A stretch of 63,998 nucleotides of DNA, the filler included, from Streblomastix strix (taxonomy: Eukaryota): NCBI GenBank assembly GCA_008636045.1. It is 3 parts of 3 records of this genome, joined end to end, with 100 filler letters (N's around TTAATTAATTAA, not from the genome) between each part and the next. Parts side by side here need not be neighbours in the genome. Positions count along the whole stretch, not along the records: positions 42,803 to 63,998 come from SNRW01000390.1; 2 more parts are not named here. One strand, written 5' to 3'. Positions 17,206-60,253 of this stretch are shown piece after piece; within the stretch, counting starts at the first letter, position 1, and every line of letters starts with the position of its first letter. Both the position numbers and the translations under genes were made by a program. Below the pieces are notes generated by a model. It worked only from the letters and a program-made list of their open reading frames with translations, did no database searches and was not told the DNA's origin.

Positions 17206-17604
17206 ATGACTCGAGTTATCTTTGATAATCGTGCTGGAAGCCGCACTCGTACTCCATTAAAGTCATCTGTTGAAACCGTTCCAGATGTATATATCATGGA
17301 AAAATTTAATCCAGATCCAATAGTTTTTGAAAATGTGAACGAGTTTAAGTAATATCTAGCATTAAATAAGGAAGAAATAGAGAAATTATCAACACTTAAG
17401 TTGAATATGTAATATAAAATAAAAGGTGGTTATAGAATCACCAGATTGAAAGGTAAGATATCATTGAGATTATGGCCTAAAGAATAAAAACTGGAAAAAT
17501 AATCTGAAACTATTGAGTAGATGTAGAATATTGATTAAAGATTGGAAAATTTAATAAATACATTGTTGAGTAAAAATATTATATCAGAAGAAGATTTGAT
17601 GTGA
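17206..17604 (+). CDS. Hypothetical element protein (132 aa)
   Basis: Code 6 ORF with TLKLNMQYKIKGGYRITRLKG and a C-terminal coiled coil. Confidence 0.75.
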
Positions 17605-17606
17605 AA

Positions 17607-18383
17607 TCATGATACGATTTCTATCGTAGTTCCATCTTCATTATACTTAACCAATAATGCTTCTCTTTTTGGAAGTTATACATATTATTGCCAAAGATCT
17701 TCTTTATCAATTGGAATTGATGATTAATAAAAGAATAAATTGAATTTTTACCTATTAAATGCACCGAAGAAATATATTGAATCAACATTTGATTTAATTG
17801 CTGCATCAAGCCCAATAATATCTTGCAAACAAAGAAAATAAGTAATTCTTGGTTATCTATTTTTGAATAATTTCTTGAAAAGAGGGCTCATTTTATTTTT
17901 GAAAATTGACATTGCATCATCGAATAAAACAATAGTGTGTGGCGATTTAATTTTGAAATCTTATGCACCAACAGTTTCAAGAATTTCTTTTCGAGACGTT
18001 TCATCTAATTTATCATCAATATGTTAATCAATTACTTAATCATAGGCTTGCTTACATTCTATCAAATCATCTAATGTAGCATCTGCTTATGAATATGTTA
18101 CTATTTTTGTTGTTATTTTCATCAAATGTTTCATTTTCTTATAAATTTAGTCATTATTAGTATCAGTAACGTAGATAAATAAAGTATAGCTATGATTCTT
18201 TAGTTAACTTAACTTAATTATTTCTTTAAAGACGTTATAAGTTTTCCCACTACTACGTTATCCAATGAGAAGATTAATGGAGTTATATGTGAAATTGATT
18301 TCAGGATGAATTATAGATTAAGTATCATGTCTATTTTCATTAATATTTTCTAAAAGTGAGTTCACATGCTTAGTTAATGACAT
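17607..18383 (-). CDS. A32/FtsK-family genome-packaging ATPase (258 aa)
   Basis: Walker A LLIGQRSSGKT, Walker B HTIVLFDDA, then KNRQPRITYFLCLQ...AIKSNV. Confidence 0.9.
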
Positions 18384-18619
18384 TTCAATGTAAAATTCTT
18401 ATTGTTGAAGCACTTTGCTACTACTTTAAAGATCAAATGAATGTAAAAAATAGCTTAGTAATTCCAAAACGAATAATCTAATGAAATTAATTATTTTTAT
18501 CAGAAATGCGAAACATTTATAAAAAGTTTTTTTCAGAATTTTATTTTTTTAAAAAAATTTCACTCAAGAACTTTTTTAATTGAAAATTCATTTTAATTTT
18601 CTTCGAAAGACAACAAAAA

Positions 18620-19351
18620 ATGAAATCATCAACTTCAGATCTATCTTATACAAATAAATTTGCTAGCAATTCCATTGCCGGTCTAAAGACTATTACTTTT
18701 ATCGATAATGTTATAAAAATTAAATAAATCAATTTAGCCTATAGAAATTACATACTTTCCCGTGAAAATCTAGATGAATTAAATAAATTGATATAGACGA
18801 CTGACGTAATGAAAATTAGTATTCAAAATCTAGAATAAATTAATAAAAGAGCAACGTATCTAAGTAAAAGGGCAAATGATTATGGATATGATTATGATAA
18901 TGAATACTCAGAAAAATGTTTTAGTATTTATAACGTTATCGATCTAAATATATAACGTACAAAATTTATTTTATAAAAATTCTTAAAAATTTCTGATTCT
19001 TAAATTAAAATAATATTTGACAACAACAAAGACAAAACAATGTATTAATTGTTAACTATCTATAATGTTCCAAATGAATTGAATGAAATTAAAGGTGATT
19101 AAGATGGTTTTTACTATGAAAATGATAAATCTATCTTAGTACCAAATGATTATGCTGTTCCTAATAAAATACCTAATAAAATCTAAGATGTTGCCATAAA
19201 TCCTAATCCAAATGAACACTCACAACAGTTTCGGTATTAAATGTTAAATGATCCATTAGATAATTAAGAATTTGAATTTTAAGAAGATGAAGATGATTCT
19301 GAAGCAGATATTGATTAATATTATTCAGAAGAAGATGAATCTGATAATTGA
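18620..19351 (+). CDS. Hypothetical protein with acidic tail (243 aa)
   Basis: Code 6 ORF from ATG to TGA; last gene before the putative right terminus. Confidence 0.7.
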
Positions 19352-19464: not shown

Positions 19465-19597
19465 ATGCAAAGTTTTGAAATTTTGATGTCTGAGGACATG
19501 CAAAGTTTTGAAATTTTGATGTCTGAGAAATTTATGAAAGTTCATTTTTAATGCCTGAGATATGCAAAGTTTTGAATTTTTGATATCTGTGGAATTT
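19465..19597. repeat. Four ~30-36 bp direct repeats, probably subterminal repeats of the adjacent hAT-like element
   Basis: ATGCAAAGTTTTGAAATTTTGATGTCTGAG repeated with variation. Confidence 0.7.
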
Positions 19598-19848: not shown

Positions 19849-21307
19849 ATGAATCATTTTTTAATTTATGATTACCCAGGCCAAAGCCTTCCTTAAATAT
19901 CAGACGTTTAATAAAAAATTAATGAAAATAGACAAAAAGAATAAATGAGTTTGAACTACATTATTATTTATTAAAAAATATTATAAATCGTTTTAATAAT
20001 AATTTTAAAGTTTCTGCAACAGATACACCAGCATAATCGTTGCATTCGTTATAAACAAAAGATTCTACACCAGTGAATACTGCGAGTTTTTCATCAACTA
20101 ATTTAAACGCATCGTATAATGACTCTATTATTAACTATTAAACATTGGATGGAGATTAATTTGAAGGAAAGCCACATCCAAAAAAATTTCATAAAATGAA
20201 AGATTGCTTAATAATAAAATTTAGAAAGACAAATTTTACGATTCTGTAATAGAAATTAATAAATGAATATAAGACACATTCAAGAACACATTTGATGTGT
20301 TTATAATAAGAAGGGAACTTAAGATGTAACTTCGACAAAAGAAAAGGATGGATTTATTCATAAAAAAATAAAGAAAAGGTACCAAAAAATTTTGATGAAT
20401 AATTGGCAATAAAAGAAGAAGGAATAAAAGAAAAATATCTTATATTTTACCATAAATGCCGTTTCACAATTCCAATTGCTAATATAGCGTCTCCAACAGA
20501 AAATGAATTGAGAATTTTAATTGCACGATGTTTGATTTAAATGCGCACATCATATTCTTCTTCATCTATTCTCTTTAATGCATTTCATTCAGCAATGCAA
20601 TATTAATCTGATCATAATGATAAAACACCAGAATAAAACTTAAAAAATTTGGATGTAAAAGAAACTTCTGTGTTAATTATTGAAGTAGCTAGAATAATTT
20701 AATAGTAATAAATTCGTGCATTAAGGGGTTGTAGAGTAACCGTCTCTTTAGATTCAGCAACAATTCATACACATCATCTCATTGCTGTAATAATATCAAA
20801 TATCAACGATAATAATTTCCATCCAATTCTTTTTGCACTTGATAATTCTGGGACTTCAAAAGATGCAATTATGAATTTAGCAGCACGAATTATTGAAGAT
20901 TTGCATCATTTAGGGATCAGACCCGTTGCTTTCGTAACGGATGGTCTCCAAAGGCAGGTCGACGCTCTAAGTTTAGAATCTGAAATTAACTATTCTTAAT
21001 TATTAAATCAATACTTGATTGAAAATCCTAGCAGAATACAAAATCAAAAATAAATCCAATAAAAATCAGTCTCATCGATTTCATTCAGTCCAATGTTACA
21101 TAAAATATAATAGTAAAGACTTTAAAAAGGTCAATAACCATAATAGGAGTCTACTATTTTTGAATCAAAATCGAACTAAGATTATTTAACAACACCAGTA
21201 AGATAAGAACATCATATAAATAATAGTTTAATGTAAAAATCTCCAGAATCTTCTATAATTTAACAGCAACAATAACAACTTGAAGAGAATATTAAATAAT
21301 AATAAGA
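19849..21307 (+). CDS. hAT-like DDE transposase, 3' end truncated by the contig end; intron 19949-20010
   Basis: VTVSLDSATIH (first D) and PVAFVTDGLQRQ (second D). Removing the GTTTGA...AAAG intron joins the ATG exon in frame. Confidence 0.65.
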
Positions 21308-21407
21308 NNNNNNNNNNNNNNNNNNNNNNNNNNNNNNNNNNNNNNNNNNNNTTAATTAATTAANNNNNNNNNNNNNNNNNNNNNNNNNNNNNNNNNNNNN
21401 NNNNNNN
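21308..21407. other. Artificial contig linker
   Basis: N-run, TTAATTAATTAA, N-run. Confidence 0.97.
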
Positions 21408-24159: not shown

Positions 24160-27150
24160 TCATTTAATCTTTCTTTTTTTTTAACGTCTATCTCATAATT
24201 CTTCTCAATATTCATCTCATTATCCTTTTCATCAGCGTATCCATTATCAACATTCGCTTACATATATCTCTTATAGTTTGCATTGGATATTTCAATATCT
24301 TCTTTACTCATCATTTTCTTTTAATTTCCTCTTTAATCTTCATTCAATGTAAATATTCTTATTTTTAATTTATTAATATATGGTCTTGATTCTGAGCACT
24401 TTTGTTCCAAAGCATTCTTATACGTTTTATTATCCAATTTGATGGTTTATATTAATTTGCAACTGATACTGGAATACCTTATTTGAACTGCTCAAAGTGT
24501 TCAATGATAATATCATCAACAGGAGATCTACAAACATTAATCAATTGATTTTTTGCCTTGGTCATAGGAATTAATCATGGTTTGAACTAAGAAAAATCGT
24601 ATTTAAGAAAATATGTCATTAAATTCTCATAGTACTCTTAAGTATAACCTTTATTTAATTTCTTAAAATATTTAATTTCTTCAGGATGTTCTTTAGTTAC
24701 TTAATGAACTGTCTAGTATGCACATATTAAATGACGTTTATCATCAATTTCCAGTTAAACAGGCATATCACTATTTGTTACATATATTACATTCATAACG
24801 TATTCAACAATTCTTCAAGGTTAATTTTTTTCATTAATTTTTATGGTTTAATCCAAAATTATTGATTTCATTACTATTGCAAAACCTTTCTTTGAATCAT
24901 TATAAATCAACATTTCATTTAATACTGAAAAAATCTCATATACAACTACTGAATTGGACTTTAGGGAGAATTCATCAATATTAATTATGTTAGAACAACT
25001 ATATCTATTTAGTAATTAAGCTATTACATCAGTGAATCAATTTTTGCCAATTAATTATTTTCCTTACAAAATGATTGCAGCTCTTGACTCTTTCCGGGAT
25101 TTTAAATCATTCATGCAATCCGATTTAGAATATATGCATTTACTCGTTCATCTCCTGCAGCAATGATTTCTTTAATTAAATCAATGTACATTTACAAACA
25201 ATTATAGTTAGTTTCATCATTCTCTAATCTCCTATACTTATACATTTAGAATGTACTGAGTATTATTAGATCTTCGCTTATGAATTTGCAGTTTTTCTTC
25301 GCAAACTTTGATGCATACTTCTTAAGGATATGTTTAGCAGTTTGGGGTTTAGATTCTTTTGGTTCATTATTCTTTTGATTAATTTTTTCACCACTTTTCT
25401 ATTTTTTGAAGCAGAAATTGATTTTCTCTAATTATTTATATGGCATTCTTTCAAATTTATGATACAAGACTTATGTGTCACAATTAGCATCATATCCTTT
25501 AATCGCATAAATATCTTCAGTTTCACATTCATAATATATTAGTTATCTTATTAAGCCCATCACCTTTTATTCTACATTTTCATATTCTCTATTAGTTGTT
25601 TTCTCTAACATATTGAGTAATGTGAAATCATCAGATAGATCAATCTTATTTAGAATCAATATTTAAACAATATTTATTTATTTTTCAACTTTCTTAGCTT
25701 CATTATTCTTTTTCAATAACAGTTTAATTGTATATTCATTTTAATCTTTGTTATGATATTTAAGGATTTTTGTTAGGATCCATATATTTGGTTTACGTTC
25801 GCCCTAACATAAAGCTTAACCATAATTCTTCTCAGCGTTTGGAATTAATGTATTAAATTTTTGAATATTCTCCAATCCTTAAGCTCTTATTTGTTCATTA
25901 AATATTACTTAAATTTCATTGAAAACACTTAATATTGATATTTTCATAACTATTGATTGAAGACATTTATGAATTGTTAAATTTTTCAGTATATCGACAC
26001 ACGCTTATGCAAGTTCATCATCCATTTTATCAATAGTTCCATCATTTGTAATTTATTAGCCATATACTCTTGTTATTTTTAATATTTCAAGTTCCGTATA
26101 TAAAATTTCAATATAAACATTCCTTGATTCTAATATATCTCTTAGATTCGCTAAATATGCCATGTTAGCACAGTCAATAATCGTTTCATACTTAAGTGTT
26201 TCTCTATCATTATTTTAGTTTTTCTAATGCTAGTGTTTGGACTATCTACATGATTTTACATAAGTTCCGTTTATGTTGGATCATCTTCAAATTTTTACCA
26301 TTTGTACATTTATGGATATATATTAATTTCAATGCTATCCGACACAATACATTTCACATATCAATTAATAAGCAGACGATATACATTTTTATTTCAATAT
26401 GCATATAATCCTCTGTGAGCTGTTCAACTAATCTAACATTAGCAGGTAGCATATTATCTATTATATTTTAACGAATTTCATCAATCTTCTTTTTTAATAG
26501 ACTCTTTTTAATATTGAAATCAATCACTCATAAATCGCCATCTTCTATCAATGTTAAATCAACTAATTTACCTGTAACTTATTTTTTTCACCTTCTTTTT
26601 AGCCAATTTTAGAATAATTTACTATGTTAACCATTACATCATTAATTCTTTCGTTAATAATTCTAGTCAATATCCCTGCTCTCATTTAAACGACATATTT
26701 CTCAATTATATTATCCAAGCTTTATCGAATAACATTATCCTTATCTTTTCGTCTTCTTGTACCCATTTTTTTTCTAATCAATATATCTCTTATTATTTCG
26801 CAACTCGTGTTTCCTGATTTCGTACAGCATTATTTTAATCATATAAAATTTTCTCATGTTTTTCTTTGATTATTTATTCATTTTTCTTTTCATTTGTCTA
26901 TATATTATTAGTTTCATTATAGAATGATGCGTTCACCATCTCATTAACGATTCGATTAACAATTTCGATTGCTTCTTATTTCTTTTCTTCTTTTGCTTTA
27001 ATCATTTGATCAGCTAATACTTTAGCAGCATTAACTGTTTTAGTCTTATGCAAATACTATTTTTTAGTCTCTTTTTCAATTGTCGCTAGTTAGATGTTTT
27101 GTTGGTTTGCCTCAACGCTTGAAGATTCTAAAGTTGATATTTTGGTTTAC
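24160..27150 (-). pseudogene. Decayed PrimPol plus SF3 (D5-like) helicase fusion; start approximate
   Basis: Relic motifs VIDFNI..., LVE/TAHRGLYAY, AIILQGKQLIGKN*FTDVI and LIPMTKAK align to 44215-46886. Many TGA codons and frameshifts. Confidence 0.75.
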
Positions 27151-28404
27151 AATTAAAATGATAGGTTAGATTATAAAAATAAATTTATTTAGATTAATCA
27201 GTTCATTAATCACTTCGTTAATTTCACACACCAATCCCAATTAAAACATACATAAGTTTGTTCTCTGAATAGTTAATTAAAAAAAGTGTTGCCCGAACGA
27301 CGAAAATGACAATATTTTTTCCTAAGACCAATCACAAGATTGATTATTACAAGTTATATTGTTCATTGCTGATTTTCATTATTCAATCATATTGCTTAGG
27401 TATTCATCTTCAATATCTGTACAAGATTGCTCAATAATTCATTAATGTCATTAATCTCCACAACTTAACTAATTATCTTGACCATTCAAATTATTTCATA
27501 AAACTAATATCAAAACAACACAAGCCATATTCACGGGTTCCAACAATTCATACCATAAGTTCCATAATTGCTGAACACCAATGTTTACATGATTATGGCT
27601 TAGGCAAATGAGGTTATTTTCTATGTTAGGACAGCACTCTTTTTAACTAAATACTAACGCATTCGTTGATTGTTTTATTTGCAGAAAATACTATTCTATG
27701 AATTTTCTCTAGATAAAATATTTATGTTTGAAAGGTTAGATCATGAATCATTCAAAGAAGATGAGGAATCGAAGGTTGAATTATTTCTATTAGTTTTAAA
27801 CATATCGATCGAATCATAGACTGTTTCCCTGCAATTTCAAATATAAACAGAATTAATAAAAAAAGAAATACTGATATGGAAAATTCGGTCAATTGTCAGT
27901 GAATTTTGTACTTCATACAATCCATTCAATCCTAATAATAACAAACTTAAAAAAAATTTTTAAAAAACTTGATATTTAATAACAAAAATATTTAGAACAT
28001 TAATTTCATTAAGGCAAAATGGGGTTTAAGTCATTTTAAAACTGTGCTTTTATTGTGTTTTTATTTCATTTTCAAAATTTTTACAATAATACAGTAGGTT
28101 TTATAATGCATTTGAATCTTGCATGAAGTTATGAGCAGCGTAGGAGCTATGCTTCCAAAAAAACACGATTATATTTTGAATGTCAACTTTGAACATTTAA
28201 AATTATATTTCATCTGTTTTTGTTTTTAAAATTATGAAATATTTACATAATCAGAAATCGTTTTCTCTGAGAGAGAATATGATTATTTTTTATTTTTTAT
28301 TTTAATAATGCTTTGCTTTGACTTCCTTTTATTCTAACATTATTTTTTACTAAATGATATATATATTTTATTTTATTTTATAATAAACATAGAATTTCAA
28401 CAAA

Positions 28405-42702: not shown

Positions 42703-42802
42703 NNNNNNNNNNNNNNNNNNNNNNNNNNNNNNNNNNNNNNNNNNNNTTAATTAATTAANNNNNNNNNNNNNNNNNNNNNNNNNNNNNNNNNNNNNNNNNN
42801 NN
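42703..42802. other. Artificial contig linker
   Basis: N-run, TTAATTAATTAA, N-run. Confidence 0.97.
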
Positions 42803-43941
42803 CTTACGTATTGTTTGAATTCATTAATAGATTTTCTGCTGTAAAGTATAGTTGGAGCATGATTTTACACATGATTCTCATCAGGAAGCATAATTCTGTA
42901 TGTTACTTATTTATTACTCACTGAATCTTATTCAACTTCCATTGGAGTTCTATATTTACTCAAGGCAGTAGTCTTGTATGGTTTATAACGAATTCTTCCT
43001 GGATTTAATACTTCCGTTATATCACGACCAACTGTATTAGGATCTATCATTTATTCGCTTCGTTAAATTGCAGTTCCGAAATCAAAAGCACACTTAAATA
43101 ATCTACCATTCTCATGCTAATATAATCTCTCAATAAAAGCATCACAATCTTCTGATGAAGTAATATTATTATTAAAGAATTCAACTGTAGGAGATGTAGT
43201 TTCAGTAGCAGCGATATAATTTATAGTTTCACCAGCATAATGAGCTCATTTATCTTCTATAACTTGAGATAATAGATCATATGTTGCTGGTTCTGTCAGA
43301 AGAATGAATTATTGATTATCATAACCAAATTCTTAGATATCTCTATCAGAATATTATTGATTCATCCGTTGAATTTCTAATCTATTTCATATTAGAATAT
43401 CACGTTCTTAAGGCGATAAACCTGATTCAAATCTCTAGAATCTAGCATATAATTATTCTTATTCCATCATTTCCATCGAGAATTCTTATTCCAGACGTTA
43501 TTCTAGATTTCTAAATTCTCTTTCTTATTATTTCTACTAAGATTTTATTTAATAATGTTTTCTGCGTTTCTCAATAAATTTCTATTGCTTATTAACAATT
43601 CTAATAGGTTATACTGGTTTTTCTCTTTATTTCTTTGTTGTTTACTGTTATTTAACGAAATCTTTAGGTTAAGCTCTTGGAGATTGTTTCTTAACAGCTT
43701 GTTGAGCTTGAGGTTTAATAATTTGCCTAGGTTATGGTCTAGGAATTTGCCTTGTCACAGGTTGAAACTACTTCGTAGTTACTAAATCTTGACGATTTTG
43801 AGGTTAAATAATAAGTTATTTTTAATCTTTAAGTCGTTCTTTATGTGTTTGTGGCTAATGTTAACGACGATTTTACTGTAGTTTTTAGTTCTTAGGTTTA
43901 TTTTTCAAAGCTGGTCTAGCTTATTATTTCTTTCCTGCCAT
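42803..43941 (-). pseudogene. N-terminal (terminal-protein) region of a second pPolB, disrupted and truncated by the contig edge
   Basis: FKCAFDFG...QVTYRIMLP...INEFKQYV aligns with FKIAFDFG...EVRYDVRYP...LETYIKF in the contig-1 pPolB. In-frame TGA codons present. Confidence 0.65.
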
Positions 43942-44049
43942 TTTGGATAATTGAAAAATGGAATATTATTATTAATAAATAGTAATTTAAAATAAATTAA
44001 TTTTTCTTATTATTAATAGTTAAAAATAAGAAAATTAAAATTAATTTGA

Positions 44050-44076
44050 TGGTGCTCTAGTGCTTGGTGCTCGAGG
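44050..44076 (+). repeat. Left arm of a perfect 27-bp inverted repeat
   Basis: TGGTGCTCTAGTGCTTGGTGCTCGAGG is the exact reverse complement of 47191-47217. Confidence 0.95.
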
Positions 44077-44214
44077 TCAAATGAGTTCTTATTTTTATTA
44101 AAATACTTAATTTCCATTTTTTTATTTTTTTTAATTATTTCCATTTTTATTATTTTTTATTATTATTTTAATTAAACTATTTTTTTAGAAACATCATTTT
44201 AGGTAGATTGCAAA

Positions 44215-46886
44215 ATGGCACAAAGTTAAAAAGTCTTATAATTAACTCCCAAAGAATTACAAATCAGATCAAAAATCACTGAGTATTCTCCATAATAACG
44301 AGATTAAATAACTGTACTCTACTTTAAAATGGCTGATAGACTGCATCTTGACTATAATAAGATGCTTGAAAAAGCTGAATCACATAGTAATGATTCAGTA
44401 GAAGCGCTTAATATATTCATCTCTAGTAAGTTTTCAGGTTATCTTCTTGCTCTAACAGAAGATTATGAATATTATACATCAAAAGAACTTATTCCTCGAA
44501 TTTCCGAGAAATTGATATAATTATATGATTTCAAGAAATTCAACGATGAAATTACTCCATTATATGATGTATAGGAAAAACCAGTAAAAACTAGAAAAAT
44601 TACTGGAAAAGCTATAAATAATGCAGATTGCCCATACTTAGCTATTGTTGATATTGATATTGACAAGAAATTAAGTGAAGAAGATAGAAATCACATAAGA
44701 AATGAACTCTTAGAGAAGATTTATCATTCAGAATTAAACGTAGCCTTAGTTAAAACTGGTCATGGTGGTTTACAAATATATTGTAATATGGATTCTCTAA
44801 TTCTATTTGCTGGGAATTCAATAGTTAAAAAAATAACCACTGATAAATACGATGCAGATATATTTGCTTGTGTAGATTACAATGAAAGTAAGAGATGTAT
44901 TGTTTACCTGATTCAAGAATCAAAGACTTTGAATATGATACAGTAAATAAGAGATAATAACCAAAATAACCAAATCAAGTATTTAAGTACGAGAAGTTAG
45001 GAAAGACAAAAATAAAATTTGATAAAAAGAAAGATCTAAGTCTCATATCATAAGTATTTTAAGTATTTGGATTTGAAATTGAGCTTATAAAATATCATGA
45101 ATAACCAGAATAAGATGCTTAAGCTAGTTATGATGTTAATATGACGAAATAATAAGCTGATATATTAATAAATGGCCTTAATAATCTAATTATTCATAAT
45201 TATGCTGCTAAATCAGAGAAAGAAACAACTCTATTTAAGTTATTTTCATCAGTTAATGGCATGAAAGCTATTGCTGATGTTGATTTATAGTGGATTAATG
45301 AAGCTTATAATAAAATTAGTTAAATTCAAGGTCTAACTATCAAAGCTAGATCGAACTTCGATAGAACTCGTATTAGACTCGCTGAAAGATCATGTACACC
45401 TCATTACCTAGAGAAATTAGTTAGATTAACTAATGAAGAGTATTACAATAGTGAATACTTACCAACTGAAGTTAAATCAGAAGATACTAAATCACAATTA
45501 AGTAGTAAATCTTAGAATGATGATGATATCATTGATCTAGCAAAAATTACTGTAAATAATATTGATTTAACAGATTAATTTGAGTTAGCAGATATATAAA
45601 CTAAGATTAGTAAAGGAGAATATGAGTGTGTTGAGGATATTATATCTGATATGACTAAGATAATGAGATATATACACTCTGATACTATAACATTCTTATT
45701 CAAATAATACGATAGTCTGGAAAAGATATATATCTTCGTTTGGAAAAGTAAATCATATGCATAAGATATATTAAACATGATTCCAGCACATTTCAATAGA
45801 AAGAAGTCTAAAACACTGCGGTAATTAGCTATAGCATGTAATTATATATTCTTAATTAAGAAAATAGAGTTTAAAAGTGATGATACAGATGTGTTTTCTA
45901 TGTTTTAAGGCTGGAAATGTCATGAACTTGAGCAAATTAACACGAATTTAATATAACCATATCTAGATCATATAAAATAAGTAATTTCTTCCAATGATAC
46001 AACTGTTAATGAATATATTTTGAAATGGTTTGCATTAAAAATATAACATCCAGAATAACAGATACATGTATCAGTGATATTAAGAGGTGGATAAGGCTGC
46101 GGTAAAAATACTTTTACTGATGTACTATCTGAGTTAGTATCTGGATATTCGTTAAGAAATATTACTTCATTAACATCAATGACTGGGTAATTCAATTCTA
46201 TCTTGAGTAATAGAGTATTTATAGTGCTAAATGAGCTCACAACATTCAGTTCTTCTATTGGACACGAAGTTGATAAGCTAAAATCATTGATTACAGATCC
46301 AACATTAGAAATTCGTACTAAATTCTCTAGTTCACATGTTGAAAAGAACTTATTAAATTTCATCTTCATATCCAATCATTTAGATTCTGTTCACTTAGAT
46401 TAAGATGATAGAAGATACTTAGTATGTTAATGTGATTCTAAATATACGAAGAATACTTAGTACTTCAACAATCTATTTCAACATATAAATCAAGAAGGTT
46501 TCTATGATAATTTCATAACTTACTTTCATAAATTAGATATTTCATAATTTGACGCTAGAATCATACCAATGACTGAGGCTAAAAAGGAAATTATCGAGAT
46601 ATCATTAACTGACATTGATAGATTCTGTATTTAATATTTCAAATAGTTAAAAGTTGGTTGGTTATGCGATGAAGCACAACGATATTGTCCAGATCCTATT
46701 AAATCAGGAAATTTCAGATTATAAATTCATAAGAACTGTGAAACTATAAGACAACATCGTATGATGAAACAATTTAGATTGTATAAGATTAAGGAAGATA
46801 TAGTAGCTGAGCTAGAATAGTATGTTGAAGATGATGTTAACGAAGAGATTATTAACAAGATTAACGAAGAAGAGTATAATACATGA
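44215..46886 (+). pseudogene. PrimPol primase plus SF3 (D5-like) helicase fusion with one frameshift near 44903
   Basis: LAIVDIDID, VKTGHGGLQIY, DADIF; Walker A GGQGCGKN, Walker B FIVLNE, NFIFISN, DDRRY. Confidence 0.85.
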
Positions 46887-47190
46887 TGATATTATAATTT
46901 CATAGTAAATTCATTAAAATTATTATTTTTATACAGAAGGGACTTATGATGAGGTTATAAAGCAAACTAACATAGCGATACATATAATGAAACACACAGG
47001 AATTCATAAAGAAAAATATTTTTGCACCATGTTTTCAACTTACAAACTCTTATTCTATAGTCAAATCTCTTACTTATCCTATTCCTAACAGTCATTTCTC
47101 TTATCAGACACCATTTTCAAGTATGCACATCATCATACGTATTATCTCATGTCAATACTAGCTAATTCAAAAATTTATAAACTCAAACAC

Positions 47191-47222
47191 CCTCGAGCAC
47201 CAAGCACTAGAGCACCACTACT
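47191..47222 (-). repeat. Right arm of the inverted repeat, extended by a Polinton-type terminus
   Basis: CCTCGAGCACCAAGCACTAGAGCACCA followed by CTACT; the minus strand starts AGTAGTGGTG. Confidence 0.9.
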
Positions 47223-47499
47223 TTTCCAATATTTTATCACAAATCACTTATTACCAAATTTTATCATTTATTTTTCTAATTTACATTATTAATAATTATT
47301 TTTCGTCAAATCCAATCTTTCTCCAATTTCATCAACTTCACCGATAATTCACGCATTATTTCATTTTTCATTACTTTTCTCATTATTTATCATAAATCAT
47401 CGCAAAATTAACACTTGCCATAAGCTTCGTCATAAGTTCCTTCTATTATTGCATTAATCAAACAAGCACAACTAATACAATAGCAATAATATCAAACAT

Positions 47500-49480
47500 T
47501 ATGAAGCGTAAAAAGGTTGATTGAACAAATCTAATATCTATGAGTTCAATACACGCGAAGAGGTCTTCACATCACATCACCGAACCAACAAATAAATATG
47601 AAAGCAAGAAATGCAGGATAGGATAGCCCCATCAAGTAATCGAGAAGAGCTTTAATAGAAGTGAAGCGGTTGCTTGATTAGACTAAAAATCAAAAAATTA
47701 AAAACCAAGGAACATAGAATAATCGATGATAGAAGCAAATATAGCAACGGAAGCTTCCCTGAGGGTATGGGAAGCAATTCTGCAAATACCGAGAGTTGAA
47801 ATTTTGAGAGTAACCGAACCATGGAATATGAAGATCACAACTACAAATTGAAGAGAAACAACTACATTTTTATTAACATTGAATCATTTTTAGCCAATAT
47901 TGCAACGCAACCAATTACTGTACCTAAATGTAAGGACGAATAATACAACAGTATGCACCAATCTAACCAAAAAGAAAATTATAGTACGATTGATGAGACT
48001 AGCGAAGTAAATACTCTTGTATATCGAAAAACAAAGAAATAGATTCATTTTCGAGGCTTGCAATTTCGGGAGATTATTTAATAGATAAATAATTGATGCA
48101 TCAAATGATAAAAGAATGGAAAGTTTAAATCGCAGTGGATTGTTTCGCGTCTAGAAGAAAAGTATAATACAAAAAGCACTTTTCTATAGAGAGCGATACA
48201 TTAACGGAGAACTAGGCTGAGATAGAATAATCATGGGAATGCGAAATATCACTGCAACATTGCCCAATCTCATTGATTCTGGCAATTATATATAAAGTGG
48301 AATTGGAATAAGTAAATGGAGTGATAATTGCATAAGAATGGAAAGAATAAGTATGTTGGACTGCCTTAACGCGAATCACAGTGTATTGGAAAGTATTAGG
48401 AAAGAGCTAAGACGTCCTTAAGGAAGGAGCATGGATGAAAAGGAATAAATAGAAACAACCTCCGGGGAAGATTGTGATTTTCTTGGTAGACGGGGAGAGA
48501 AGGGAGAGCAACTATTCAAAGAATGTCTATTAAATATAGGACTTGCAGAATAATCAATATAAGAAATAATAGATTGATGACATGGATGTTGGAAGAGAAA
48601 CGCCTGTTCTCTAACAATATTTGCAGAGTATTGGGTTTAACAATAAAGAACTGGTTTATAACTATCATCACTGGAATAACCATACTTTACAATAGCTAAC
48701 TGCATTAACTATCTCAAACCATTAGAGTCAGATTGCATGTATAATATAAACAAGAAACTTTATTTAAAGATTTTTCGAACTAATGAAATAACAAATGGAT
48801 TCAGTAAGAAATAAGGTAATCGAGTAATTAATGAAAGAACATGTTGATAGAGCAGCAAAAGCTAGGAAAGAAATAAATAATTTAAAACTGAACCAGTTAA
48901 TGCAATATATAAGTAATTATGCAGCTTGAAGAGATGAAAGCAAACTAAGTGTAGAGTAGTTAACAAAAATGTCACTCAAACTGACCATGGTTTATACTGT
49001 ACTAAGAATGGCAGAAGTACAAAGAGCAGAGCTGAAAACTGAGAAAATAAACCAAGGAGAAATTATAATAGCAACAACGACCATGAGGAAGCCACGATGA
49101 CCATTGGAAAAGATCAAAAAGGCTGTTTTGGATAGAACTGTGTGATCATTCGTAAGGACACAGAGCATGTTGGAAAATGAGTAGTGAAAGGAGAGTTAAA
49201 ATAAGGATAAACGTGGAGAAATTATACGAAGAAGAAAGTGTAGAAAGCAAATAAGTGTAGAATGTGAGTCAAATAAGTATAGGCGGAAACTTGGAGTGAA
49301 GTATATAATATAACATCTATAAAAAAGGCGTCAATATCAGAAACTATTTATAAGAATAAGATACAAATATAAATAAACTGAATAAGTAGGCACAGCGAAG
49401 CTTCGGCAACTGTTAGAGTAAATTATGATACAAATAATAATGATACAATAAGAAATATATTAGAATAAGCAGAAAAACAA
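47500..49480 (+). mobile_element. Degraded DIRS-like (tyrosine recombinase) retrotransposon relic; boundaries approximate
   Basis: RNase H relic IATEASLRVWEA, methyltransferase-like relic (CPISLILAII...VIIAQEW), YR motifs TVLRMAEV, TSIKKAS and SRHSEASATVRVNYD. Stops and frameshifts throughout. Confidence 0.7.
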
Positions 49481-50732: not shown

Positions 50733-53700
50733 ATGGCTACATCAGGGATGAGCTACGATGAGTATGGAAGCGATATTGCATTTTTGTGGGATGATAAGTC
50801 CGTTGAAAGTACTCTTGAGCTTCTCCATCCAAAAATACCAGCAGGAGCGATTTCCAAACGCCAGAGGAAGAAAATAGCAGGAATTCGAAAGAATATAGCA
50901 TAATCTGGGGATAAATCACATATTTAGTCAGATAGTATCACCAAGCAATAAGGATCAATAACGAATGGTAGTGTTGATGAACTTGAAATAGCGAGAAAGA
51001 TGGGATTATTATATGATGAATAGAAGAGATCACCACCACCACATTCTATATAGTCTCCCCATTCAAGATCACCTCCATCAACAAAAGGACTGCAGAAGAT
51101 TGGATAAAGTGGATTGGGTCTTCCAAGTGGGACTAAAAGGAAGATTGTTTAACCTCCAATTCTCTCTGGAAAGGATGAGAAGTCTCAATTGAAAGTGAAA
51201 TAAGCGGTCAAATTGGATGATAAACCAAATGGAGGAGATGAAGTTATTCTTCCTCCTGCATAACCTGAGCCTCTTCTTCCTGGAGAGAGACTGATTCCAA
51301 TTGATGAAATAGACTCATGGGCAAAACCTGCTTTATCTGGTCTGACTAATTTAAATAGAATACAATCACGTGTCTATGAAACAGCATTTCGCACAAATGA
51401 GAACTTACTTGTATGTGCACCAACAGGAGCTGGGAAGACAGTAATTGCTGTATTGGCGATGTTGCATACAATTAAATAGTTCTATTTTAGTGGGAATGAT
51501 GATGAATCAGAATAGAATACAAATAAGAGCAGAAATGAAGGAATAGATGTTGATGATGATCCAATAAGTAAAGTGTATCTAAAAGATGCTAAAGAAGATG
51601 GAGAAGATAGTGACATATTATTTGGATCATCATAACAGAGAAATGAAAAGAGAAGAAACAATTCATCACCACCTGGATATGATACTAATTAATCCAATCA
51701 TCGATAACCTCCTCCAGCCACAGCAAAGATGATATACATTGCACCAATGAAGGCACTTGCTGGAGAGATGGTTGCTGGACTTGGAGCTCGATTGGCCACA
51801 CTTGGACTCGTATCACGTGAACTGACTGGTGATTCTTAGCTTACACCAACTGAGATAGCAACAGCGCATCTGATAGTTGTTACTCCTGAGAAATGGGATG
51901 CTGTAACTAGAAAGGGTTAAGAGGCTGTAGCTTCTGTTGTGAGCAGTACTGCTCTTCTTATTATTGATGAAGTGCATCTGTTGAATGATGATAGGGGACC
52001 TGTTATTGAAGCAATTGTAGCTCGTACGCTTAGACAAGTGAACTCAACACAGGTTTGATTATTTAATATAGTACCATTATCATAATCTATTAATATTATA
52101 TATATATTATATTATATAGTAAATGATTCGAATTGTTGGTCTTTCAGCTACTCTTCCCAATTATAAGGATGTTGCAAGATTTCTCAGAGTCAATCCAAGT
52201 CGAGGACTATTCTTCTTCCCTGCTGATACATACAGGTTAAATATTTGTTATTTAATCATATTAAATATTTTATTATTTAATCTTCTGGTGTATATTTATT
52301 AATAGAGCTGTTCCACTTCAACTTAGATTCATAGGATTAAAAGAATAGAAGAAAGGAAGTGGGAATTAAGGGTCAGAATAAGAATAAGCCAATTTTTCAT
52401 ATTAATCACCATCACTTCAAACACAATAACGTCAATCATCCTCCAGACCATCTGAATAGATGAGACAGTTTATGAATGAAGCTGCATTTAGAGTAGCATT
52501 CAATTCATTGAAGAAGAATCAGCAAGTTCTGTGTTTTGTATAGTCACGTGCAGATACAAGGAAGACTGGATAATAATTCATTGACTTTGCAAGATTGGCG
52601 AATAGTTATGCATCAAGAGGGATTGACTTTGGATGTGGTGTTCCCTGGAATAAAGAAGATGAAGAAGATGAGAATGTGTTTGAATAGAATGAGAAGGAGA
52701 AAAGAGAGAAGGAAAAGAAAGAATTAGAATAATAATAATAATAATAATAGGAATTTGAATAATAACAAGAGAAAGATAAATAATCAGATAAACAATCAGA
52801 TAAACAATCAGATAAACAATCAGATAAACAATTAGATAAACAATCAGATTCAAATGGTTAGAAAGTCAGAGATGAGTTTGATGAATTGTTTGGATGGGAT
52901 GATTTTGAAGATTTAAAATAAGGAGCAATAATTGCTGGGAAAAAAGCATAAGAAAGTAAAAATGAAACAGATAAATAATAAGATAAAGAACTTAAAGAAT
53001 AAAAAGGGAAGAAACCAAATAAATAAAGCAACAAAAGAAGTATTGATAAAAAAGATTAGAAAGAATAAGATAAATAAGAATAATAAGAAGATTGGAGGAT
53101 GTTGGGAAGGTCCAAAGATGGTAAGATAGTACAACCAGAAATAGTTAAAGAGATGGAGAGAAGAATGAAATATAAATAATAAGGATATAAAACAAATACA
53201 AATAATTAAATTCCATCTCCTTCTGCTTCTCCTTCTTCATTATCTTCATCAACTCCTCCTCCAAATAATCAGATGCAGAAATATCCACCTTCATTATTAT
53301 CATTAGCTAATAACCCCAATTTCAATCATAGCTATAATTAATAGAATATGAACAATATTCCTTCTCCCTCTTCATCACCTTCATCTAATTAATATTATTC
53401 ATCATCTTCATCACAATTATCTTTTATTAGTATTAATACTCCATTATCTCTATTCTAACCTCCTCATCATTTATTAAGAGATAATAAATACTAGAGACTA
53501 ATTTAGAGATTAAGAGCTAATGAAATAAAAGAATTGACATAATATGGAGTTGCTATTCATCATGCAGGATTATTGAGAGGGGATAGAAATATTGTTGAGT
53601 AATTATTTAGAGATGGGTTTGATATTAGTTCATTGATATATTATGTTATTATATCTTTATATTCTATTTCAGTTATATAAGAGTACTTGTATGCACCGCT

Positions 53701-56700
53701 ACATTAGCTTGGGGAGTCAATCTTCCAGCTCATACAGTTATAATTAAAGGACTTGAATACTATAATCCAAAAAGAGGTAAATTAGATGATATATCAGGAT
53801 TGGATATTATGCAGATGGTTGGAAGAGCAGGTTTGTATTAAAATTTATAATTATATTAAATTAGTCTATATTTAATATACTTTATTAATTCTACTAAAAG
53901 GTCGACCCTAATATGATACATTTGGAGAAGCAGCATTGATTACTACACAATTGAAGCTAAATAATACAATAAGATCAGTTACATCAGCACAACCAATTGA
54001 ATCCTAATTGAAGAATGAATTGGCTTCTCATTTAAATGCTGAAATTACATTGGGTACAGTCGGAACAATAAAAGAAGCAATAAAGTATATATTGAAAGAA
54101 ATTAATAAATAAAAAAATAAATATGAATATAAACAAAGAATTATTATTATTATATTTTCTATATAATTTCTTTCATATATTCAATAAGATGGCTTCAATA
54201 TACTTATATGCACATAAGAATGAAAGCAAATCCAAGTGGTTATGGGGTAACAACTGAAGAAGCAGAAGATGATCCATAATTGGCTTCCGTTTTGGATACA
54301 ATGGTGAAGAGAACTGCAAATGAATTGAAGGAAATAAAAATGATAAGGTAATGAAATTATATGATTATATGAAATAATAATAATTATTATTTCATTAAAT
54401 TCATTGTATTTTAAATTTGATTAAATAGATTTAATGATGAAACAGGTGTAGTCTCTCCAACAGAATTTGGAAGAGTTGGATCTCATTATTATGTTCATCC
54501 AGATACAATGGCTTTATTCTGTCAGGTTCAATTTCAGTCTTTATTTATTAATTAATTTATTTATATTTATTCATTCAGACTCTCACAGCGCATCTTGGAG
54601 ATGCAGGAATATTCCATATGCTTTCATAGTGTTAAGAATTCTCATAGTTTATTGAAAGAGAAGATGAAACATTAGAATTAAAGATGATATCAAATGATGG
54701 GACATGTCCAATAAGGATATTAAGCAGGTACAAACCCAATGTGAATATAACCATAGATTTAATCGGTGGAATAGCTGGAGAATAAGGATAAGATGTAGGA
54801 GAAGGATAATAAGATCTCTAATTGGGTAAGAATATAATACAATAATTGGAGAGAGACACTCCAGGAGGGAGATGGGAAGGTAAAGGTGGGAAAAGTGGTA
54901 AAGGAGATGCAAAAGGGAAAGGAGGAGAAGGAATGAAGAAGATTTAATAGAAGAATCAGAAATCAGGTTAATTTGGTTCTAATATGATTGATACTAATAC
55001 AGCTGAAGGTGCTGGTGCAGGAGGTGGAGGTGGAATGACTGCAGATTTCAAAGCTAATGTCCTTTCATAAGCATATATCAGTGGATACAGGCCATAATCA
55101 TTCTCTCTTTCAAGTGATATCAACTATGTAGGACAGAATCTCCCTCGTCTAGCTCGTGCACTGTTTGAGATATCGCTTAAGAGAAGATGGGCAGCTCAGA
55201 CTTTGAGATTACATGAGATATGTCTATCTGCTGAGAAGTAGATGTGGTGGTGGGCTCATCCATTCTGCCAATTACCACAGAAGATATTCCCATCTGAAGC
55301 TGCTAGAGTATTAGGAGAGAAAAGGATGGGTATTGAATAATTGAGGGAGATGAACTCTGGAGATCTTTTGGCTATTCTCAGATCAAGACCGGCTGTTACT
55401 TCTGTTAAGGAAGCACTCCAATATTGGCCACATGTTGATATAGATTGTGAGATTAAGCCCATAACACACAATGTGCTCAGATTGGATATTGCATTGAGAT
55501 CCAAATGGAAGTGGGATGGAGAAGGAAGTATTCATGGAAGGCAGGAATAATTCTGGCTTGTAGTTGAAGATCCATTAGAAGATGAAATATTGCACAGTGA
55601 AATGGTTATATTCAGGAAACCAGGATTAAAAGGAAAGAAACAGAGAGGAGGAAGAAATAAAAAAAAGAATAAAGGAAAGAAAGGAAGTAATACTAAAGAT
55701 GATGATGATGAGAAACCACTTCCATTCTCATCTGCATCATCATATTCATCTTCTTATTTCACAACAGCTGCAGTATCACTTTTAGAGATGAATAGTAAAA
55801 GAAGAAAATAATCTGATAATGGAGATGAAGATGAAGATGAAGAAGAAGATTATGATGAATAACTTACATATGCGTCATCTAATAATACAACTCCTTCACT
55901 TACAACTCTTGCACAGATCGCAGCTTCATCTCTTCCACCCAACTGTGAGATGATTACAATAGTAGTTCCACTTCATGATCCAGCTCCAGATGAATATGTA
56001 ATAAGAGTCTTCTCAGATAGATGGATGGGTGCCACTAATGCACTCCCTATATTACTCTCTAAGATTGTCAGACCTGGATAAGGATCAACTGGGATTGGAA
56101 TCACAACGTCAGGTGGACTACAGAGACACTCAATCACACACCAACATACATCACTACTTCCTCTACAACCACTTCCTAAGACAACTTTGGAGAATCAAGA
56201 ATTGGCCAAATTTTACAGATTTTCTTTCTTCAATCCAGTTCAGACACAAGTCTTCTACACTGCACTTCACACTGACAACTCAATCCTTCTTGGTGCTCCA
56301 ACTGGATCTGGTAAGACACTCATTGCTGATTTGGCTATTCTAAGACTGCATAAAGAATACCCTGAATAATGCGCTGTATATATTGGCCCATTAAAAGCTC
56401 TAGTACGTGAACGTATGGAAGATTGGACAAGAAGATTAGTTCCCTCATTGAATATATAAGTAGTTGAATTAACAGGAGAGACCACACCTGATTAGAGAGC
56501 ACTTGAATGCGCATAAGTTATTTGTTCAACTCCAGAGAAATGGGATGGTGTATCAAGAGCTTGGGGAGCAAGAGCATATGTTAGACGTGTGTCTCTGTTG
56601 ATTCTTGATGAAGTACATATGCTAGGTTAGGATAGAGGCCCTGTTATAGAGGCTATTGTATCCAGACTTAGATTCATCAGTGCTAGAACAGGAAGACCAG

Positions 56701-59700
56701 TGAGAGTCATTGCACTATCAACAGCACTAGCCAATGCAGGTGATTTAGCAGATTGGTTGGGTGTGAATGAATCTGGATTGTTCAATTTCCGTCCTGATGT
56801 GAGACCTGTTCCAATAACAGTTCATATTCAGGGGTTTTCAGGAAGGCATTTCTGTCCGAGAATGGCAACAATGAACAGACCAGTATACAATGCAATAAGA
56901 GATTATTCAGGAGGGAAATCTTCATTAGTATTTGTTCCATCTAGAAGACAGACGAGATTAACTGCAGAAGCTCTGATAATGCTCAGTGCAGTTGATGAAG
57001 ATCCAACACAGTTCTGGGGAGAAGGAATGAATGATGAAGAAATGAGGAAGATTCTGTCAACTGTGAGAGACAATGCACTCAGACACACTCTATCATTTGG
57101 AATTGGATTACATCATGCTGGATTGGGTAAAGATGATAAAGGACTTGTTGAAGCTCTATTTGCAAGAGTTAGGATTAGAGTATTGGTTTCTACTGCTACA
57201 CTTGCATGGGGTGTGAACTTACCTGCAAGATTGGTTGTTGTAAAAGGAACCGAATTCTATGATGCACCAACTGAGAAATATGTTCCATATCCAATTACTG
57301 ATATTCTTCAGATGATTGGAAGAGCTGGTTTGTTTTAATTCTTAATCATGAATCAATTATAAATATCATCTTTCATTTCTATTTAATAGGTCGTCCTCAA
57401 TTTGATACTAATGGCTTTGCATGTGTAATGTGTGAATCCTCCCGAAAGGAGTTTTATCGTAAGTTTCTATATGCTCCATTTCCAGTAGAATCATCACTTC
57501 ATTTATAATTGCATGCTCATTTAAATGCTGAAATTGCGAGTGGATCTGTGAAATCAATAGCGGATGCATGCGCCTATTTAACCTGGACGTACTTATACAG
57601 ACGAATATTGGCTAATCCAGTTTATTATGGAGTACCATTGGGCAAAGATATATGGAGATAAGATAAAGGAAAGAAAGGGAGTGAGTAATAATGGAGTAGT
57701 GATGAGATCAGTGTAAGTGTAGAGAATCATTTAGCATAGATGTGTATTAACACTTTGAAGGATCTATATAGACATAAATGTATAGCTGTGGCTGGTTGGA
57801 GCAAGAAAAGAAATACATTTGAATAGAAAAATGGATAAAATGAAGAAATTAATGAAAATAAAGAAATTGTGAAGAGAAGAGGTATTAAGATGATAGTTGA
57901 AGAAGCATTAAAAATTGATGGATATTTATATGGTATTGATAATAATGGATCTGATGATGATGAAGAAGAAGATCAAAAAGATGAAATTATTCGTGCATTG
58001 GATAATGAGATTGATTTGATACTGACAACAAATCAGTCACAAATACCATTTAGTGACTTCATTGATGATATTCATGAGATCGATTAATTCTGTGAAGGAT
58101 CAACTATGCGTGAATTACTTGGATTGAATAGTGATGATTTAATTGGAGAATTAGAATTGGGAGATGAATTAGATGGTAAGAATGACTTGGATGAAAATAT
58201 TGGATTTGAGGATGACTTTGGAGAAGGGAATGAAGTTGGATATATGATGAATGAAGTTGCTCTACAGGAATTCCCTGAATTGAAGAAGAATTAATTAAAT
58301 TTAAAATAAGATGGAGAAACAAATAAATATTAGGAATAGAAGAAAGGAAAAGGAAATAAAAAGAAAAAGAATTAATAATAACAATAATAACAATAATAAT
58401 AAGAAAAGAAGTAATAAGATGGATAAAATAAAACTAATACAAAAGATTCATTTCAATACAATCCTAAATAATCTAATTCTAAATCAGATAAAGATTAAAC
58501 ATCAACATAACAATAATCTCAAACATAATAAACAAAGAATCTTCCTCAAATAATCCCTCTTCCATTGGGGAGAATCACTTCATATTATTATCTGAGACAT
58601 TAAACACCTACTTTCTTTGCTGCTAAATTATCTGATGCAGCCAAATAATAAATGAGAATAACATAGATAATGATTGGAGAAGATTTAAACGAGAAATATG
58701 GATAATAAAGAAGAGTAAATGTAAGTCTGAGTTGGATGAGACCTTCTTTCTTCTTCAATTATAAATCCAATGAATTATAGTCATCTTCATCTTCATCTTC
58801 AATATATTAACAACCAACCTCTCCATTTACACTTCTGTCTAATCTCTCTCCATTTGATATGTTATTCCTCAGTGCATCATGCTCTGAATTCAAATTACTC
58901 CCAGTCAGACACAATGAAGATGAAGAATGCAGAAACTTTGCTGAAGCTCTTCCATTTGTATCTTCACAATCACTCTCATAATCAACTCATTCACAATCTG
59001 TAATACATTCTACACTTTCATTCAATTCACCTCATACAAAGACTCTTCTTTTAGTACTTGCTCATATAACTCGAACTCCTTTGCCTTCACCTGACTTTGC
59101 TACAGACTTAAAATCTGTCCTTGATTCACTTCCACGTGTTCTCCAATCTCTTATTGATGTATCAGCTGAACTCGGATTACTTATTCCAGTTCTAAAGACT
59201 TTGAATTTGGGATAAATGATATACTAAGCTCAGATGGAAACAGATTCAACTCTACTCTAAGTGATCAAACCAATTATTGCATCTCATTTGGCTTCAGAGG
59301 CTGCGAATAGACAAGGAAAGTGGAAGAATAAGGATGAAGAAGAGAAAGATAATGAATTAAGAAGAGATTTAGAAGGTGTTGAGATTGAAGCTCAATATCA
59401 CTCAAGAAGAGCTTTGAGATAATTAGCAGAGAAACACGGCATAAAATTCTTACCATAACTTATATGGCTTGCAAATAAAAGAGACAATGATTCAAAATAT
59501 AATAAACAACAACTAACAGCTGTTGATGCATTGATCTCTGCTGGAATCGATTAATAGCAAAGTGAAGAGATTGACAACATCTTAGCAACAATTCCTGCAA
59601 TAACAGTTCGATGCTCATTAATTACTCTTGCTGAACCAGATAAGAAGGATGTTGATGCAAAATAAGAACCTACTTTATCAAAGAAAGAATAATAAAGACA

Positions 59701-60253
59701 GAATAAAGAAAAATAAAGTAAAGGATAATAAATACAGCAGAATGATAAATAATAATCAAATTCCATATAGAAACAAATAATATTCACTACACCTCCATCT
59801 CAAACAAATCCTCAATAAACATTAACAAACATTTCATTATCATCAATCACGCTTTAAATCACAATTACACTCACTCGTCATAATTAACAACTAACTTCAA
59901 GAGCTTTTGCTCCAAATTTCCCCAAACCAGTGCCTGTTGGATTTGTACTGATTGTTGGATGTCCAGCAACTGGTGAGTTATTTGCTCTGAAGCGAGCACA
60001 TTTCCCACCTTAAAACCGTAATTAAAATGTCACAGTAAAATTTGAGATGAGTATTAATAAAGCTGAGAGATTGAGACGAATGGAAAAAGTAATGAATGTT
60101 ATGATAGAAAAGAAAAGACGAAAGTCAAAAGGGAATTAAAATGATTATGAAAGAGGAAGAAATAATACCGCTAAAGGAAGTATATTGAGATTATTTATGG
60201 TCTGCGATTCGTATTGTGGGCTCGATGAAGAATACCCTCTTTATTTCAAATGA
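50733..60253 (+). CDS. ASCC3: Ski2-like tandem helicase ASCC3/Slh1, multi-exon; start uncertain
   Basis: Two cassettes: LNRIQS...[13 protein letters not shown] and [13 protein letters not shown]. Also [11 protein letters not shown], Sec63 domains and ASCC3-type [11 protein letters not shown] and [12 protein letters not shown]. Ends [15 protein letters not shown]. Confidence 0.92.

Follow-up and report, generated by a model that had tools for sequence, protein, structure and literature searches.

We analysed a 63,998-nucleotide stretch of DNA from Streblomastix strix, an oxymonad protist of the termite gut (assembly GCA_008636045.1), called the window here, and this account centres on a gene for an archaeo-eukaryotic primase–superfamily 3 helicase (AEP-SF3) protein that lies between the arms of a 27-bp inverted repeat at 44050–47222. 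The window is AT-rich, is read with TAA and TAG as glutamine (Gln) codons and consists of three separate contigs in descending order of size (1–21307, 21408–42702 and 42803–63998), joined by N44-TTAATTAATTAA-N44 spacers at 21308–21407 and 42703–42802. As the three pieces are unlinked, features on different pieces are not to be treated as neighbours. The repeat and its gene lie on the third piece (SNRW01000390.1), which has the length, 21,196 bp, of the contig on which the window's own gene model, P0004, is recorded.

Family contigs came from four runs (X1–X4) of three studies, all of them assembled contigs and not raw reads, with X1 and X4 derived from one sample. X1 may be the source of the present copy, as it contains pieces that are letter-identical to the flank of this copy. 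For the region 46900–47600 the comparison covers 27 of 287 pieces, 22 of 92 loose ends, all 5 joints and the best 40 of 141 differences, and for the region of the left arm and the helicase gene it covers 15 of 73 joints and 24 of 682 loose ends. Summed contig depth served to place a boundary only and is not a measure of copy number. From left to right, the locus contains the following features:

42803–43941, minus strand: 5' part of a polB gene with Streblomastix homologs and two in-frame TGA stops; the contig ends inside polB
43942–44214, no strand: divergent AT-rich intergenic region, with the polB and helicase start codons both in the context CAAAATGGCA
44050–44076, plus strand: internal 27-bp motif copy, separated by 108 bp from the start codon of polB and by 138 bp from that of the helicase gene (both ATG)
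44215–46886, plus strand: gene for an AEP primase-polymerase, a helical domain, an SF3 helicase and a C-terminal winged helix, assigned by Pfam and folds, in the TAA/TAG = Gln code and decayed
46935–46954, plus strand: inner inverted tip copy, starting AGAAGG, 48 bp past the helicase stop and conserved in the loose-end letters of X2 and X4
46935–47444, no strand: 510-bp terminal unit, marked by inverted tip copies at both ends and by sister contig ends
47191–47222, minus strand: second copy of the 27-bp motif with an AGTAGT hexamer, located midway in the terminal unit and, on the evidence of five bridging pieces, no end
47425–47444, minus strand: true element end, reading 5'-AGAAGG on the minus strand (...CCTTCT at 47444), marked by contig ends, a flank change in X2 and a drop in cover

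The two arms of the repeat (44050–44076 and 47191–47217) are exact reverse complements, as the initial annotation had stated, over 27 of 27 bases with a GC content of 59%. The match cannot be extended exactly on either side, no third copy occurs in the window at up to six mismatches, and about 1e-5 perfect 27-mer inverted repeats are expected in the window by chance. Each copy is built of three GTGCTY hexamers, which start at 44052, 44060 and 44067 in the left arm, and both stand in AT-rich DNA (91–92% A+T on both sides of the left arm and 70–81% around the right arm). The downstream cluster of hexamers is found 304 bp past the helicase stop, and the two clusters are 3.1 kb apart. The identity of the two arms ends abruptly, and their flanks are no more alike than dinucleotide shuffles, as 103–552 of 1000 shuffles reached the score in five tests. 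These sharp edges and unlike flanks fit a binding site and not a duplicated end. The idea that the left arm is a decayed terminal inverted repeat (TIR) or the relic of a terminal tip was rejected on the same flank tests and on the position of the arm, which is not at a terminus. Also in agreement with the initial annotation, ACTACT is present at the right arm (47217–47222) and missing from the left, and no target-site duplication of 2, 3, 4, 5, 6 or 8 bp was found for four candidate units. A search for the exact motif gave 0 matches in viral contigs, metagenome contigs and prokaryote genomes, and Rfam gave nothing in 43900–47600. TGAGTT follows both arms beyond five differing bases (44077–44087 and 47180–47190), and the site may span 38 bp with a variable spacer. 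ATTTGA/TCAAAT frames the left arm only and could pair.

A single gene lies between the arms, and the initial annotation correctly described it as a PrimPol-SF3 gene. Its helicase half matches S. strix proteins at 87–89% identity, and it also matches Pfam family PF19263 (E-value 7e-20) and the helicase of phage NrS-1 (E-value 6.5e-39). Pfam assigned no family to the primase half. The intact sister P0002 was represented by a model from a 52-sequence alignment with a predicted local distance difference test score (pLDDT) of 84, which replaced a first fold from 7 sequences (pLDDT 48) that gave weak Prim-Pol matches only. The P0002 model aligned with the C-terminal region of the NrS-1 protein (Z 26.0, root-mean-square deviation (rmsd) 4.0, 367 residues aligned) and with PriRep of the Staphylococcus aureus pathogenicity island (SaPI) SaPI5, also over its C-terminal domain (Z 19.6, rmsd 5.7, 374 aligned), and model residues 55–261 aligned with the primase-polymerase of pRN1 ORF904 (Z 8.7, rmsd 4.2, 164 aligned). 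Judged by its modelled fold, the gene product is an AEP-SF3 protein with a C-terminal winged-helix-type domain. The family shows the AEP fold, with its DxD, His and Asp motifs, followed by the SF3 ATPase, and the present copy has Gln in place of His as well as a frameshift. The initial annotation had placed this frameshift at 44903. Contigs of all four runs (13, 3, 1 and 2 contigs) have one extra base near 44902, which agrees with that position as read from assembled sequence, and the base missing from the present copy may be genomic or an assembly error. The position of the catalytic His152 is a Gln codon at 44773–44775, whereas His152 is present in at least 90% of the 52 homologs and in 7 of the 8 family copies that cover the column. 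The present copy is thus decayed, with a frameshift, a His-to-Gln change and two stops in polB. Six copies are 85–92% identical in pairwise comparison. Among the Streblomastix copies, the wing of the winged helix (residues 810–822) ranks within the top five of 735 eleven-residue windows for variability, at 0.22 versus 0.075 for residues 90–760.

The polB part has 21 Streblomastix homologs at 57–97% identity, one of which is named DNA-directed DNA polymerase. A longer sister, P0069, matches the polB of a second Polinton on contig 1 (E-value 1e-105), and polymerase motifs were found in the sisters P0069 and P0075. Pfam gave no family for either polB. By these sequence matches, a Polinton-type polymerase is present beside the helicase. 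The starts of polB and the helicase gene are head-to-head and point apart, with the left arm about midway between them. A contig from another study (X3 record 18) covers the polB start and the arm (43898–44082), and the 171 letters that follow 44082 in this record have no match in 42803–48600. This record indicates that the left arm is a feature of the family beside polB and not unique to the present locus, as the initial annotation had allowed it might be. No loose end was found at 44050 among the 24 of 682 listed.

The initial annotation read the right arm, with its ACTACT, as a Polinton-type end. However, family sequence continues for 222 bp beyond ACTACT, to 47444. At least five pieces of sister copies, with 23–31 differences each, cross ACTACT with more than 31 letters on either side (X1 records 3 and 4, X2 record 13, X4 records 22 and 23), and at least five pieces stop at 47443–47445 (X1 record 7, X2 records 14–16, X4 record 21). 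The contigs that reach 47443–47445 while passing ACTACT at 47222 come from two studies. X2 has a different flank beyond 47444, and the cover of X2 and X4 is 0 from 47452. No loose end was found at 47217–47222 among the 22 of 92 listed, and all five joints on 46900–47600 (5/5) are skips. The true terminus of the element is therefore 47444 and not ACTACT at 47222. Vertebrate Mavericks have the end motifs (AGT)2, (AG)3 or (AC)3A, according to a passage of PMC8097293, and it was by these canonical motifs, derived from vertebrate Mavericks, that the internal AGTAGT looked like an end.

Between the inner and outer tips of the 510-bp terminal unit, 17 of 20 bases agree, which is the closest match that the window offers, and the inner tip is precisely where X2 record 10 starts. 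As the whole-region test of the tip repeat is weak (10 of 500 shuffles reach the score), the case for this repeat is made by the 17/20 core and the contig ends. The 510-bp unit is probably the right TIR of the element. The 27-mer lies within it, 227 and 256 bp from its ends, and no differences in 47163–47231 are found among the best 40 of 141 listed. The tips at both ends of the unit and the start of X2 record 10 also fit the inner edge of a TIR, and solo 510-bp copies of the unit may exist. A long terminal hairpin was considered and rejected, as the terminal unit folds no better than its shuffles (−19.4 versus −26.1 ± 4.0 kcal/mol). The minus strand of the unit contains a short broken frame that includes a hydrophobic stretch; its start is some 78 bp inward from the right arm, and the frame has two stops. 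The right flank of the element, at 47500–49300, holds a decayed retroelement remnant, of which 48096–48926 matches the C-terminal part of the reverse-transcriptase-bearing model P0018 (E-value 1e-21).

Next, we compared gene order in sister copies. A capsid gene lies beside the helicase gene, or is fused ahead of it, in 5 of the 14 other helicase contigs. Three of these carry neighbouring locus tags (019530/019531, 020019/020020 and 023470/023472) and two carry fused capsid-helicase models (P0007 and P0015), of which the front of P0007 is a major capsid protein by Atlas features (0.92–0.93) and by source names. As sister helicase genes adjoin major capsid genes, the helicase gene belongs to capsid-encoding Polintons of S. 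strix. When contigs were paired by size, none of the 14 other helicase contigs coincided with any of the 32 polB contigs. In five fused models, polB lies behind a co-oriented gene with no assigned identity, and Atlas gave no usable match for the gene ahead of polB. The polB gene precedes an integrase gene in four fused sister models (P0024, P0031, P0035 and P0075), and P0031 is named integrase catalytic domain. These gene-order lists are bounded by protein length and clustering, fusions reveal co-oriented neighbours only, and P0013, from a 35%-identical subfamily, was left out of the counts. The present fragment has no capsid gene between its replication genes, and the integrase and the other end of the element are off the contig. 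Capsid, helicase and then terminus looks like the usual order, with the present locus a minority form. This minority order may stem from deletion of a capsid module between two direct copies of the motif, or it may be a natural isomer or an amplification chimera.

More distant relatives were found outside Streblomastix. An alignment search of viral contigs gave 27 loci with 24–31% identity over the helicase domain, while protein-based locus searches found no relative of P0002, P0058 or P0231 in viral contigs and none of P0069 in prokaryote genomes. Of 41 metagenome loci, 13 were inspected for genes, and the terminal region of one, L004, was compared with all 41. In L001, a polymerase with family B motifs A and B is placed head-to-head with the AEP-SF3 gene, 84 bp from its start. 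Head-to-head placement is thus natural in at least one relative, in another organism. In the gut-metagenome loci L004–L023 (e.g., L004, L015 and L021), no further gene stands between the helicase gene and a repeat-rich terminal region, and elements such as these three encode an A32-like ATPase. The ends of the gut elements consist of variable tandem or inverted 300-bp units (L004:9390–10358, L005:5300–5968, L006:2910–4040 and L022:2745–3510) that are rich in TGGCCA and have a CACACAC/TGTGTG end, and L004 appears to carry two ends back to back. A further AEP-SF3 relative, L002:1597–4065, is open under the TAA/TAG = Gln code only, which indicates that another protist with that code carries the family.

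We consider it well established that the locus is the right end of a decayed Polinton-like endogenous virus. The full explanation, in which the 27-mers would in addition be internal helicase-loading sites, is the one we favour, with modest confidence. As a short, exact and sharply bounded hexamer repeat occurs in AT-rich DNA in two unrelated settings, we infer a protein-binding site; the most probable role of the 27-mer is that of a cis-element present as a pair, for example one on which the helicase loads. What is uncertain in this explanation is the role in loading, to which a promoter role would be the main rival. In an active element, the hexameric AEP-SF3 protein would have used its C-terminal winged helix to bind the three GTGCTY hexamers, melted the adjacent AT-rich DNA and primed internal synthesis, in addition to the protein-primed synthesis by the protein-primed B-family DNA polymerase (pPolB) from the tips. 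Such a binding role would have preserved two identical 27-mers amid otherwise unrelated flanks. The head-to-head junction of polB and the helicase gene possibly resulted from recombination at the motif, which would have removed or displaced the capsid genes. A variable wing, together with a terminal-unit centre that differs between copies, would fit subfamily-specific recognition.

Several observations weigh against this explanation. In X4 record 21, the deepest contig of that run, 169 unlike letters replace 47107–47277, yet the contig connects the helicase gene to the same terminus; the motif is thus not common, at 80%, to all copies. No contig piece among those listed spans the left arm into the helicase gene, and the gut relatives have no clear common motif on both sides of the gene. 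The variability of the wing could be that of a loosely constrained surface loop. The two clusters of three hexamers are 3.1 kb apart, whereas a SaPI origin has 6–12 iterons within about 300 bp. Two three-hexamer clusters also depart from the SaPI-type layout in which these 6–12 iterons run in opposite directions around one AT-rich centre downstream of rep. At the end itself, the TIR assignment of the 510-bp unit is drawn from a contig that carries a single element end, and the tip AGAAGG starts with AG and matches none of the vertebrate end motifs.

A possible, though unlikely, alternative retains the same anatomy and makes the 27-mer a promoter or transcription-factor site for the divergent polB and helicase genes, with the terminal copy driving inward transcription. 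The two start codons lie at almost equal distances from the left arm (108 and 138 bp), a recognised recombinase that would use the motif is lacking from the family's genes, and the short broken frame with its hydrophobic stretch begins, on the minus strand, some 78 bp inward from the right arm. However, the motif is directional whereas the genes are divergent, and the frame inside the terminal unit contains two stops.

An extension of the loading-site explanation, which we regard as distinctly unlikely, is that metamonad Polintons have a SaPI-like internal origin, where a fast-changing wing would read subfamily-specific iterons in the terminal repeat and in promoters. The iteron blocks would then act as recombination points at which the capsid module is dropped or swapped, giving rise to capsid-less derivatives with two replicases, and the 510-bp unit may move alone as a minimal satellite.

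It is very unlikely that the primase-helicase was a once-mobile replicase module with its own repeats, taken into a pPolB Polinton, of which the internal 27-mer is a remnant of the left boundary. Repeats apart from the TIRs bracket one replicase in two-replicase genomes, and one AEP-only element is described, in the available part of 10.64898/2026.10.13.758929. The helicase lies behind differing genes in fused models, such as capsid genes in P0007 and P0015, a 32-residue helicase piece lies behind structural genes of another family in P0124, and X3 record 18 departs from the window sequence just past the left arm. Against such a module, the right arm is inside the terminal unit and not at a boundary, neither a target-site duplication nor flank homology is present, and a terminal or head-to-head placement recurs in distant relatives, suggesting an old resident gene. 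The initial annotation had proposed a module captured by terminal recombination that left an internal copy of an origin. The iteron-like motif, the recurrence of the arm beside polB and the minority gene order agree with part of that proposal, while a relic of a terminal tip is at odds with an arm that is not at a terminus and with flanks that resemble each other no more than shuffles do.

It is highly improbable that amplification or assembly produced the head-to-head junction at the left arm as a chimera, joining the polB and helicase promoters through their common motif. The separation of the 14 helicase contigs from the 32 polB contigs and the position of polB after a co-oriented gene in five fused models would fit a chimera, and amplification chimeras are mostly inversions primed at 2–21 nt of complementarity, as PMC1855051 reports. 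However, L001 has the same head-to-head layout in another organism, fused models reveal co-oriented neighbours only, from lists bounded by protein length and clustering, and the motif would still need to exist beside both genes.

Lastly, a satellite or invertible cassette, in which 44050–47222 moves alone or flips between its arms, is barely credible and already largely refuted: its arms are perfect, the AGTAGT hexamer is canonical and rare forms could lie outside the joints and loose ends listed, but at least five sister pieces cross ACTACT while at least five stop at 47443–47445, neither arm has a loose end among those listed, no strand-changing joint between the arms is found among the joints listed (5/5 and 15/73), and there is no target-site duplication. 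The first two proposals of the initial annotation, a satellite or transpoviron-like mini-replicon and an invertible segment, are not supported by this evidence, nor is the former by the sister helicases that lie beside capsid genes.

Endogenous Polinton-like viruses of S. strix, in its own code, have already been reported (Bellas et al. 2023, PMC10120064), and the supplement row for this species gives a figure of 820, taken here as a count of capsid genes. The present element resembles these Metamonada-group viruses in its species (by homolog names), in the TAA/TAG = Gln code and in its sisters with a double jelly-roll capsid, pPolB and integrase. It differs from them in that the present copy is a one-ended, decayed fragment. 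Nothing on the family's termini, gene order or an internal repeat stands in the available passages of PMC10120064, and in the literature searched, where this was the only paper to join Streblomastix with Polintons or Mavericks, we found no description of the family's terminus, terminal unit or internal motif. Polinton-like viruses commonly carry AEP-SF3 modules, and the Metamonada group still lacks a placement, according to the part of 10.64898/2026.06.19.733378 available to us, and a review passage notes Polintons with D5-like primase-helicases (PMC4405056).

Passages of PMC7845603 on the Trichomonas vaginalis Mavericks (Tv1.6) describe an ORF with a DNA primase domain beside pPolB and list 2,716 primase ORFs. 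Like the present family, these are metamonad elements with pPolB and a primase gene, among whose copies are fused, nested and fragmentary ones; a paired internal motif is absent from the passages, and the likeness is drawn from the descriptions. Repeats that bracket a second replicase were described in Polisuviricotina in October 2026, in the available text of 10.64898/2026.10.13.758929. In both cases AEP-SF3 and pPolB occur in one element and short repeats flank the AEP-SF3 gene. Unlike the repeats reported there, one of the two at the present locus falls within the terminal unit, and a mobile module would be putative here.

The nearest solved analogue of the present protein is SaPI PriRep. 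It loads itself on iterons downstream of its own gene, and penta- to heptamer iterons that lie downstream of rep are recognised through the wing of its C-terminal domain, as set out in passages of PMC9371898 and 10.64898/2026.10.17.759575. SaPI5 PriRep and phage NrS-1 share with the present locus the domain order, the fold and short repeats in AT-rich DNA about 300 bp past the stop. The present locus differs in its eukaryotic host and integrating virus, in having three hexamers per cluster and clusters on opposite sides of the gene, and in that its binding is predicted. Transpovirons and non-autonomous Polinton derivatives are similar in that the locus has replication genes with no capsid gene between them. 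Unlike these, the unit 44050–47222 has no termini of its own, and its capsid content is judged on a fragment that ends inside polB.

The remainder of the window contains further elements. Contig 1 carries a complete, near-intact Polinton of another family at 730–19351, which encodes a 1752-aa pPolB with an HNH-like insert, an integrase, an A32-like ATPase, a repeat-rich 967-aa protein and a 570-aa capsid candidate that is unlike the helicase-linked capsid. No primase-helicase gene was found in it, and a link between this Polinton and the 27-bp repeat locus was rejected, as the two lie on different contigs. A 48-nt AT-rich array occupies 1–600, three short repeats lie at 19468–19590, and just right of the Polinton, at 20196–21307, there is a weak match to the transposase RNase H family PF21787 (E-value 0.004, under the cut-off). 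On contig 2, the minus strand of 24300–27570 holds a remnant of a second primase-helicase subfamily. The region ahead of it, 27331–27529, resembles the outer half of the terminal unit with a score of 75, which 0 of 500 shuffles reach and which is below the score of the AT-rich array at 1–600 (78). GGAACTTATG is found near 27560, by this region. The region 27331–27529, from which the gene points away, may be a related terminus. On the contig of the 27-bp repeat, 50733–60253 is an intron-split host gene whose product, a large DEAH-box helicase, contains two helicase cassettes and which we take to be Brr2/ASCC3-like.

Our analysis moves the boundary of a single dead copy to its correct place, in a family that is known and abundant, and supplies the terminus and the terminal-unit structure of that family. 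If the 27-mer is a helicase-loading site, the AEP-SF3 proteins, which many Polinton-like viruses have either alongside pPolB or in its place, would gain a defined target in cis. Two questions would then become testable: what keeps a primase-helicase in an element whose polymerase is protein-primed, and by what route replicase modules and capsid modules are swapped. The 27-mer is thus a candidate cis site for the Polinton primase-helicase, and it may also mark rearrangements of modules.

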